Below, piece after piece: positions 60,675 to 62,246 of a stretch of DNA of 64,000 bases (the stretch's first letter is position 1; each line of letters opens with the position of its first letter). The notes under the pieces are model-generated. The model did not search any database and was not told where the DNA came from. It worked only from the letters and a program-made list of their open reading frames with translations. The translations under genes and the position numbers were made by a program. Origin of the DNA: Candidatus Margulisiibacteriota bacterium (GTDB taxonomy: Bacteria > Margulisbacteria > Marinamargulisbacteria > JBFWNS01); assembly GCA_050250935.1 (NCBI GenBank), contig JBFWNS010000003.1, forward strand, positions 96,001 through 160,000, written 5' to 3'.

Positions 60675-62246
60675 TTAAGACAATTCCGAGCGTAGAATAA
60701 AGGCGTTCAAGGTCAGAAAAAGGGTGTTAATGACGCTGTTTGGCGCACCGTGTGCACAGGCGACGCCAAGGTGAGTAGGGCTATAAAAGGTGCTGCCAAT
60801 AATATTAAAGTTACAGTTCGGAAATAACCCTGCTAGGTTTGGGGTGGTCTGGTTTTGTAAGCCTTTTATTGTCTCATGTAAATCGCCTGTGGCTGCCGCA
60901 ATTAATTGTCTTGCGCCCCGGGTATAGTAGCGTTCGAATCCCATTCTCTCGAGGTTAGATCTTAGTTGTTCAAGTGGAATTCCGCACAGGTTGGAGATCA
61001 ACGTTCCTTCGACTTGAAAGAGGGTTTCTGAAAATTCTTCAACGGTTCGAATATTTTGATGGGACTGTGGGCCAAGTCTTCCTTGTTGCCTAAAATCGAA
61101 AAGAGTGGCCATTTTTAATTGCTCTGCGTAATCGGTCACAACCCGAAGTGTTTGGTATAAATCCAGATGTGGGCCCTGTAGCCCCTCGTCCCTATAACCT
61201 TTGTTGTAGTCTTCTATATTCAGGGTGTCACCAGCATCCCGCAACCCAGTTTTATTGCCAGATGCAATAAAAAAATTATCATGGCTTTTTCCCGTTGGAT
61301 TTCCAAGAAGTACGATGCCCAATTGGCCTGTTTCGCTTCTCAGTGCATAGTCTGGAAAAAAACGTTCCATAAACAGCAAGACGGGGTTAAAGCGCCCCAG
61401 GTCATTGGCTCTGTTTCCTTCGCCTTTTCTTGGAAGCCACGGCTCGTCATAAGGATTTTTTGAGTGTAAATTGCCTTTGCAATCGGTTACGTCGGGGAGT
61501 ACTAGACCATGGCCATAAAGTGCGCAGAGTTTGTAGGCAATAGTTTTCATGTTGTCTCTATATTCGGACACTGTTCCAAAGTGCTTTTGAGGTTCTGTGT
61601 TGTAAAAATATTCTTTTGGCGCTCTGTAGACGAGAGCATCGGATCGTAAACGTGATATTTGGGGTGACAAATCACGAATGACGTGGCAGTTGTGTACAAT
61701 CCCCAAAGGTCTAACACCACCAAAAAGCTCTGGGAAAGCGGCTGTAACCCCATATTCCTGGTCAAAAGTTTTGCTGCATTCCATGTTTTTGGCGAATTTA
61801 AAGCAAAGGAGTTGCCCTTGGTCGTCTTCAAAAGTCAGGGTTCGACCCCTTACCTGCAACCGACTTGGATTAAGGGTGTAGGTTTCTCCTTGAATTTCAA
61901 ACGTAAGGTGTCCGTCTTTTCGTGAAAGAGCAAGCGATGCTAACCGGTGTGCTAAGGGGAGAGCCTTTGACTTAGGCGCTTTCGGAATTTGAACTTGGGT
62001 AAAGGCATCGCCCAGCATGGGCATGCCTGGAAGTTCATAGGTTTCGTTGCCGCAGCCAGTAATTCGCCACTCTCGAACTTCAGAAAGTCTAGCGAGTTGT
62101 AAGGGCGTGATACGTCTGTTTCGCAATGCGGACACAAGGGAAGTGCTGGATGTTGTGGCTGTATTAGCAAGTCGTCGAAGATGGTGTGCAGAGGGTAATG
62201 CCGCGGCTCGCAGCGCTACAGCTCTGGCAGAGGCTAAAAAAGACAT
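60675..62246 (-). CDS. SidJ-like pseudokinase (candidate protein glutamylase) with a presequence-like N-terminus
   Basis: Ordered motifs GRTLTF..G...FKFAK..E, DQE, RPLG, VYRAPKEYF, GLVLPD..D, LH, DLGRF, QLG, GLRDAGDTL, CGIP, ARQ, HLG match my recollection of the Legionella SidJ core. Start reassigned to ATG 62246. Confidence 0.75.
   Translation of the reverse strand: MSFLASARAVALRAAALPSAHHLRRLANTATTSSTSLVSALRNRRITPLQLARLSEVREWRITGCGNETYELPGMPMLGDAFTQVQIPKAPKSKALPLAHRLASLALSRKDGHLTFEIQGETYTLNPSRLQVRGRTLTFEDDQGQLLCFKFAKNMECSKTFDQEYGVTAAFPELFGGVRPLGIVHNCHVIRDLSPQISRLRSDALVYRAPKEYFYNTEPQKHFGTVSEYRDNMKTIAYKLCALYGHGLVLPDVTDCKGNLHSKNPYDEPWLPRKGEGNRANDLGRFNPVLLFMERFFPDYALRSETGQLGIVLLGNPTGKSHDNFFIASGNKTGLRDAGDTLNIEDYNKGYRDEGLQGPHLDLYQTLRVVTDYAEQLKMATLFDFRQQGRLGPQSHQNIRTVEEFSETLFQVEGTLISNLCGIPLEQLRSNLERMGFERYYTRGARQLIAAATGDLHETIKGLQNQTTPNLAGLFPNCNFNIIGSTFYSPTHLGVACAHGAPNSVINTLFLTLNAFILRSELS

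Follow-up and report, generated by a model that had tools for sequence, protein, structure and literature searches.

The P0001 locus and its likeness to SidJ

P0001 is an orphan open reading frame (ORF) in a 64,000-nucleotide stretch of DNA, in the following called the window, from a Candidatus Margulisiibacteriota bacterium of the class Marinamargulisbacteria (contig JBFWNS010000003.1, positions 96,001 to 160,000). Its predicted product is a distant relative of the Legionella effector SidJ and begins with an Arg-rich leader that probably acts as a mitochondrial presequence. An earlier note, made from the sequence alone, had described it as a SidJ-type modifying enzyme aimed at the matrix of host mitochondria. 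The locus comprises the following features (window positions, strand in parentheses):

60675..62246 (-): P0001, orphan ORF of 523 aa, distant SidJ relative, between genes which we take, from their translations, to be a fatty-acid-oxidation gene and rplU (of rplU-rpmA-obgE)
62255..62283 (-): sigma-70-type promoter, TTGATT-17 nt-TATACT, 9 of 12 matches, ending 8 nt above ATG 62246
62082..62246 (-): acid-free leader of 55 aa, rich in Arg, Ala, Leu, Ser and Thr; predicted cleavable mitochondrial presequence, which would double as an export signal
62166..62177 (-): R24-R-L-A27, candidate R-3 processing site by pattern match, weak alone
61872..62081 (-): residues 56-125, short region without match, probably the positional counterpart of the SidJ N-terminal domain that binds the substrate
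61752..61862 (-): kinase N-lobe, residues 129-165; Arg135, Lys150 and Glu164 gap-free with SidJ Arg352, Lys367 and Glu381
61227..61508 (-): catalytic-loop insertion and metal-binding motif by alignment, residues 247-340; no Arg at the 522 position
60711..60773 (-): C-terminal Leu-Gly motif and helix, residues 492-512, common to SidJ-like relatives; Cys497 at the Asn733 position

Among 18950 NCBIfam models P0001 matched only two, and both are SidJ models (E 0.01 and 0.17). When 146 genomes of the phylum were searched with NF033874, seven matches including P0001 were obtained, and three of the others proved to be genuinely SidJ-like; one comes from a Saganbacteria genome and two (G043 and G048) from the class of P0001. 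The Saganbacteria protein matched solved SidJ with an E value of 7e-14. A profile of these three relatives, built without P0001, placed P0001 first among the 1682 proteins of its own genome (E 0.0086, next 2.4). Foldseek put SidJ chains at ranks 1 and 2 of 350,542 (E 0.018), followed by kinases, with a P0001 model whose mean predicted local distance difference test score was 35.7 and which was built on an alignment including SidJ-like rows, so that this match is neither strong nor independent. The Atlas model of P0001 aligned with Pkinase clusters (template-modelling score 0.32-0.34), and a protein-kinase-like fold is thereby weakly indicated.

Besides the quality of the model, several observations count against the relationship. 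The scores of P0001 are far below the NCBIfam cut-offs (10.3 versus 400 bits for SidJ glutamylases, 14.7 versus 300 bits for SidJ-related pseudokinases), hhalign gave a probability of 37% over 36 columns, the statistical support is confined to residues 126-249, and direct searches of PDB sequences with P0001 found no SidJ. Weighing both sides, we consider it highly probable that P0001 has the SidJ fold.

P0001 keeps the residues expected to bind ATP and metal. Arg135, Lys150 and Glu164 are invariant, in gap-free register, in an alignment of four rows, and Asp337 (also invariant) and Asp340 (placed by eye) map to the metal-binding residues Asp542 and Asp545 of SidJ. In the migrated pocket of SidJ, Arg279, invariant as well, maps to Arg500, and, placed by eye, the conservative Phe286 corresponds to Tyr506 and His261 probably to His492. 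Asp255, likewise placed by eye, stands at Asp489. For the metal-binding Asn534 the counterpart could be Asn316, Asn324 or Asn331, owing to an insertion, and Ser329 occupies the gap-free position. In SidJ Lys367, Asp542 and His492 are essential (PMC6858067). Arg522, which binds the donor glutamate, is not kept: depending on the register, P0001 has Gln308 or Ile311, and the relatives have Lys, Lys and Ser. Neither is Asn733 of the migrated pocket, where counting without gaps from the Leu-Gly motif leads to Cys497. P0001 has no calmodulin IQ pattern, and its sequence stops after the last shared helix, without a C-terminal domain. According to one study, SidJ devoid of Arg522 still adenylates and no longer glutamylates, its N-terminal domain binds the substrate, and homologs outside Legionella have no IQ motif and should act on different substrates (10.1101/2021.04.13.439722).

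Taking into account that the ATP- and metal-binding residues are kept and that Arg522, Asn733 and the calmodulin motif are lost, adenylation appears likelier than glutamylation. Judged from these residues, P0001 is fairly probably an active enzyme; that it is a glutamylase specifically is doubtful, and most likely it would work like the first half-reaction of SidJ, that is, form an acyl-adenylate. "Kinase-fold adenylating enzyme related to SidJ" is therefore a safer label than "glutamylase". The likeness to SidJ claimed in the earlier note is real, and it is a distant one, below the family cut-offs and lacking Arg522, Asn733 and the calmodulin-binding tail.

With SidJ and SdjA of Legionella pneumophila (PDB 6K4K, 7MIR; NF033873) and the proteins of NF033874, P0001 shares the gap-free Arg-Lys-Glu set of the N-lobe, the inserted catalytic loop with His, Arg and aromatic residues, the Asp-x-Gly-Asp metal motif, the C-terminal Leu-Gly motif with its helix, and a likely role as effector. 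It differs in length (about 520 aa versus 873 aa), in the losses named above, and in its unrelated N-terminal region with the presequence-like leader. The genomes differ too: here a type IV system was not found by the VirB4 model, and no SidE-type substrate was looked for or noticed. The pseudokinase SelO is located in mitochondria. It is a kinase-fold AMPylase (PMC12599244) and would be the best functional parallel should the reaction of P0001 end with adenylation; unlike P0001 it is host-encoded and of a different family, and no search returned a sequence or fold match to it.

The leader of P0001 and similar leaders in the class

The first 55 residues of P0001 contain 8 Arg, 12 Ala, 10 Leu, 8 Ser and 5 Thr and no Asp, Glu or Lys, in agreement with the composition given in the earlier note; the first acidic residue is Glu56. 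The leader thus has the features of a presequence, being net positive, free of acidic residues and rich in Arg, Ser, Ala and Leu. For comparison, N-termini were taken from our own gene calls on the 1.95-Mb genome (1682 genes). P0001 ranked first of 1556 both in the number of Arg ahead of the first acidic residue and in the fraction of R+A+S+T+L, and 17th in acid-free length, and none of 7011 internal-Met controls had 55 acid-free residues with 8 Arg. In a presequence score, a composition log-odds from approximate frequencies and not a trained predictor, the leader obtained 25.7, rank 1 of 1562, with the next best at 14.8-14.9; three of the 1562 N-termini reached at least 12, and none of 7306 internal-Met controls reached at least 20.

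The nature of this score is a reason for caution, and there are others. R24-R-L-A27 is present as claimed, with Arg at -2/-3 of the putative processing site; its specificity is low, however, as R-x-[FLY]-[SA] occurs within residues 9-62 in 93 of 1556 proteins of the genome. The hydrophobic moment of the leader ranks 274th of 1556, and its amphipathicity is no higher than that of shuffles of the same residues (p 0.46); the best 11-residue moment, 0.65 at residues 20-30, is at shuffle level. Helices are predicted with low confidence at 5-11, 20-29, 36-43 and 48-54 in the structure model. No long hydrophobic stretch was found in the leader (top 15-residue hydropathy 1.41 versus 2.2-3.0 in signal-peptide-like starts), which argues against a Sec signal or membrane anchor. 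On balance we hold it probable, with good confidence, that the leader is a working presequence. A precedent is Ats-1 of Anaplasma, an effector with an N-terminal presequence that enters the matrix and is cleaved within residues 45-60, which resembles the leader length of P0001; it differs in being a type IV substrate and no kinase-fold enzyme, and a single protein as opposed to a class-wide set (PMC2824752).

The SidJ-like relatives have other N-termini, and none is a clear presequence (scores -1.8 for Saganbacteria, 0.5 for G048 and -1.5 for G043). In the Saganbacteria protein the N-terminal region is long and has an acidic residue already at position 6; the earlier note had proposed a check of homologs from free-living taxa, and this relative, which belongs to another class, is without a leader of this kind, as predicted. 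The G048 protein starts with a Lys motif described below. The G043 protein has a 45-residue acid-free, Lys/His-rich start followed by an IQ-like motif at 54. In this relative a low presequence score thus goes with the IQ-like motif, and P0001 is the reverse, with a leader and no IQ. The leader is not conserved among the SidJ-like relatives, so conservation lends it no support, which is a further point against it; the same lack of conservation fits a picture of swapped address labels. The IQ-like calmodulin motif of the G043 protein (L058:1150-2727) is N-terminal and was observed although homologs outside Legionella are reported to lack IQ.

The leaders next richest in Arg in the genome belong to a class II 3-hydroxy-3-methylglutaryl coenzyme A (HMG-CoA) reductase, an HMG-CoA-lyase-like protein (NF004283, E 1.2e-7, below cut-off) and two small unassigned proteins; that of a carnitine acyltransferase is less clear. 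HMG-CoA is a metabolite of the mitochondrial matrix in eukaryotes. In the reductase of this genome the Pfam match begins at residue 51, so that 50 residues precede the domain, compared with a median of 16 in 119 homologs. A search for the reductase matched 13 of 55 class genomes, and 12 N-termini (the own one and 11 others) were readable, the first Met of the frame being taken as start in the relatives. A net charge of at least +3 in residues 2-35 was found in all 12 divergent reductases versus 13 of 119 ordinary homologs, at most one acidic residue in the same segment in 11 of 12 versus 4 of 119, and R-x-[FY]-[SA]-[TS] in 3 of 12 versus none of 119. The leaders are mostly unrelated, with 1 of 66 pairs alike in sequence. 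A Pfam search of the phylum (23 of 146 genomes matched) added a thirteenth divergent reductase, which also has such a leader. In contrast, 4-7 acidic residues were counted in five other family members whose Met start is plausible, among them second copies from two of these genomes. The HMG-CoA-lyase-like proteins found in the class carry basic, acid-poor leaders in 3 of 3 cases, two of which end in the RSFST-/RTVST-type. The force of these comparisons is reduced by the choice of the first Met, and by the fact that genomes of one class are kin and not independent samples.

Some of the divergent class II reductases (L028:7646-8947; L068-L082, L106) are two-domain proteins of 620-740 aa and some are without catalytic motifs. 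The lyase-like loci (L036:6939-8186, L089:1369-2622, L090:1267-2709) come from 3 of 55 genomes, and the copy of this genome stands back to back with a carrier-like gene. Carnitine/choline acyltransferase, of a mostly eukaryotic family (L039:3882-5600; L084, L085), was likewise seen in 3 of 55 class genomes. The same genome has a gene that is presumably IspG-like (window 35398-36693).

Proposed delivery to mitochondria and competing explanations

A further feature of the window has a bearing on mitochondria:

41792..42946 (-): gene of the mitochondrial carrier family (PF00153), 384 aa, E 2.5e-22, with a basic Ala-rich N-terminus of its own

Five carriers were found in the genome by Pfam, plus a weak sixth (window 41792-42946, C4:1989, C4:43189, C4:48809, C8:18709 and C2:235880). 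Within the class, 24 of 55 genomes have mitochondrial carriers, compared with none of 91 other genomes of the phylum and none of 14 controls. A known bacterial member of the family is LncP of Legionella, which is secreted to the host inner membrane (PMC7542358), as may also be the case for the five or six carriers here; LncP is one carrier of one genus, whereas here carriers extend over 24 genomes of a class. The window carrier may thus belong to the same mitochondrial effector set as P0001.

The genome contains genes for flagellar rod, ring, switch and export gate, an ATPase assigned as FliI-like from a PF00006 match and its neighbours, and one secretin; flagellin, VirB4 and VipB had no match in the genome, which is 95.85% complete. 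Throughout the class FlhA was found in 49 of 55 genomes (18 of 18 good ones) and flagellin in 1 of 55 (0 of 18). Rod proteins normally have no Sec signal peptides. Here FlgB-, FlgC- and two FlgF/G-like rod proteins (L029:5239-12084) start with apparent ones, which suggests a rebuilt basal body. Near the export-gate genes there are six genes without Pfam match (L033:4223-10474; C5:133123-139374), the first two small (87 and 108 aa); this cluster is a candidate source of needle, rod or translocon parts. The sole imaged member of the Marinamargulisbacteria, Ruthmannia eludens, is intracellular and lives in host vacuoles (PMC6784892), and thin tubes reach the vacuole membrane (PMC6784892; 10.1101/568287). 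In the host it transcribes FliM, FliI, FlhA and FliF, and flagellin is absent from the 19 of 21 flagellar rows covered (PMC6784892, supplement 3). A bacterium inside the matrix would need no presequences, which implies delivery from the cytosolic side. Taken together, these features give the impression of an organism equipped for acting on mitochondria.

Most orphan-like proteins of the genome have a different kind of N-terminus. About 45 of 1562 proteins, mostly orphan-like, start with aromatic/basic-Lys-x-aliphatic-Ser/Ala (FKLIA, HKLIS and FKQLA are examples), where about 5 would be expected from internal windows, the pattern having been defined after these proteins had been seen; it is concentrated in the first five residues. 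Five long orphan ORFs of the window carry this Lys motif (427-3036, 3115-5427, 5440-9156, 19102-19956 and 20087-23098, all +), and none of them has a Pfam match. Several Lys-motif proteins carry eukaryote-type domains or enzymes (68 candidates scanned, chosen from fetched loci). The motif was seen on two terpene synthases (L046:14225-16132, L053:14029-15279) and on cytochrome P450, arginase-family and phosphoenolpyruvate-carboxylase-like proteins, and in relatives it also starts the HMG-CoA reductase P0004 and the SidJ-like protein of G048. It is probably a class-specific export signal, and the enzymes bearing it may be exported. P0001 does not have it, which weighs against export of P0001; its leader would have to serve both export and import.

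The best explanation of these observations, which we favour with moderate confidence, is that P0001 is a SidJ-like effector that leaves the bacterium through a filament-less flagellar apparatus, enters the matrix of host mitochondria and there adenylates a target. The bacterium would have a eukaryotic host, and P0001 would reach the host cell through the filament-less apparatus, with its leader acting as export and import signal as in Map and EspF of enteropathogenic Escherichia coli. The targeting sequences of these two proteins are N-terminal. Both are type III substrates with mitochondrial targeting sequences, so the two kinds of signal can coexist (PMC10458073); they use the classical injectisome of an enteric pathogen, whereas the candidate machine here is a flagellar-type basal body without flagellin. 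Import of P0001 would proceed through TOM/TIM23 into the matrix, with cleavage near residue 26 or 54. The enzyme would need no calmodulin for its activity, in keeping with the lost IQ motif, and would transfer AMP from ATP to an acidic side chain in a matrix protein. The adenylate might then be resolved by glutamate, by another amine, or by nothing, in which case an AMP mark would be left; the loss of Arg522 and Asn733 leaves room for all three. The presequence proposed in the earlier note is well supported, mostly by the class-wide leaders, the carriers and the filament-less export apparatus, and import, cleavage, enzymatic activity and a eukaryotic host remain predictions. More tentatively, the whole class could be host-dependent, with the basal body as injection device and a toolkit directed to host mitochondria which consists of carriers destined for the inner membrane, tagged HMG-CoA reductase and lyase destined for the matrix and, here, a SidJ-type ligase that needs no calmodulin and would introduce a novel protein modification into the matrix.

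Presequence-bearing effectors, bacterial carriers and SidJ homologs are each already known. The earlier note had supposed the combination of SidJ and a presequence to be undescribed, and no paper joining them was found in a search outside which lay most subscription journals, homolog figures and supplements. Nor did the literature on Margulisbacteria, again with most subscription journals outside the search, yield a description of mitochondrial effectors, carriers or a filament-less export apparatus. If the explanation is true, kinase-fold adenylation or ligation chemistry would be placed in the mitochondrial matrix, SidJ having so far been seen to act only on bacterial effectors outside mitochondria. 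A class of worldwide distribution, known almost exclusively from genomes and commonly regarded as free-living heterotrophs, would consist of symbionts or parasites that rewire host mitochondria, and the filament-less apparatus would represent a separate path leading from the flagellum to the delivery of effectors. The leaders can be tested directly in yeast, with no need to culture the bacterium.

An alternative is that the leader serves export through the flagellar-type apparatus and nothing else; the enzyme would then act in the cytosol of the host or at the vacuole, and the resemblance to a presequence would be incidental. Signals for type III export are poor in acidic residues, rich in Ser and Thr and unstructured, which bears against matrix import, and many orphan proteins of the genome have acid-poor starts. 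The leader shows no excess amphipathicity, SidJ itself acts outside mitochondria, and the acid-free start of the G043 relative with its IQ-like motif points in the same direction. Yet most orphan-like proteins use the Lys motif or Ser/Thr/Pro-rich N-termini with 0-2 Arg, whereas the Arg-rich type is rare (the three N-termini scoring at least 12), is found on HMG-CoA enzymes, is accompanied by textbook cleavage motifs in relatives, and has its most extreme representative in P0001. We therefore regard the export-only explanation as unlikely.

It is quite unlikely that P0001, while located in the matrix, leaves host proteins unmodified, either as a metaeffector regulating co-targeted bacterial effectors or as a dead scaffold. 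The substrates of SidJ are ADP-ribosyltransferase domains of other effectors (PMC12599244; 10.1101/2021.04.13.439722), and the loss of Arg522 and Asn733 would suit either version. Two 200-aa orphans of the genome (L031:6314-6928 and L038:5511-6116; C1:446313 and C5:5511) have presequence-like leaders and an aromatic-His-Gly-Thr motif. We take this motif to be that of ADP-ribosyltransferases, a label confirmed by no library. However, neither protein has a match in Pfam or NCBIfam or a relevant one in the PDB, the two show no alignment to one another (E 0.46), both are unlinked to the P0001 gene, and the ATP- and metal-binding residues kept in register argue against a dead scaffold.

Start codon and origin of the DNA

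Matrix import of P0001 by its leader presupposes that the leader is translated. If the true start were Met75 or Met77 (or GTG38/TTG41), the stretch would be an open-frame untranslated region. Some data lean that way: the coding score of P0001 is 0.06 per codon versus a median of 0.35, the leader is covered by no homolog, there is no Shine-Dalgarno sequence at the normal distance from ATG 62246, and the promoter scan gave 4 sites versus 3.4 in shuffles, a count at chance, so that the site alone is not significant. In a survey of 914 first-ATG genes without Shine-Dalgarno sequence, in which the first ATG of each long ORF was taken independently of start choice, -10 boxes peaked 6-9 nt above the ATG (46, 29, 32 and 36 genes) versus mostly 3-9 genes at other spacings. 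The promoter 8 nt above ATG 62246 has this leaderless spacing of the genome, which makes a leaderless transcript likely. At five alternative starts of P0001 (62276, 62135, 62126, 62024 and 62018) neither a Shine-Dalgarno sequence nor a -10 box was found. Moreover, 55 codons without Asp, Glu or Lys are far outside the controls. The earlier note had named a start downstream of the leader as its refutation, and the evidence speaks against one. An untranslated leader is thus very improbable; we are highly confident that the start at ATG 62246 is real, and the P0001 gene is most likely a leaderless stand-alone unit. Leaderless-type starts are common genome-wide, as about 140 of the 914 genes fall within the peak.

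The genome stems from a landfill metagenome of one study. Mitochondrial carriers and presequences are eukaryotic hallmarks and one near-complete sequencing run holds the locus, but the suggestion that the P0001 gene is misassembled or misbinned eukaryotic DNA with an ordinary presequence is largely refuted and hardly deserves consideration: the ORF is intron-less, has a bacterial promoter and lies between the two flanking genes named above on a 250-kb contig of a genome with a contamination figure of 0.16%, a 54.9-kb contig from the probable source run, although not independent, spans the locus with zero differences, the SidJ relatives found come from bacteria, and many genomes of the class show the same pattern.

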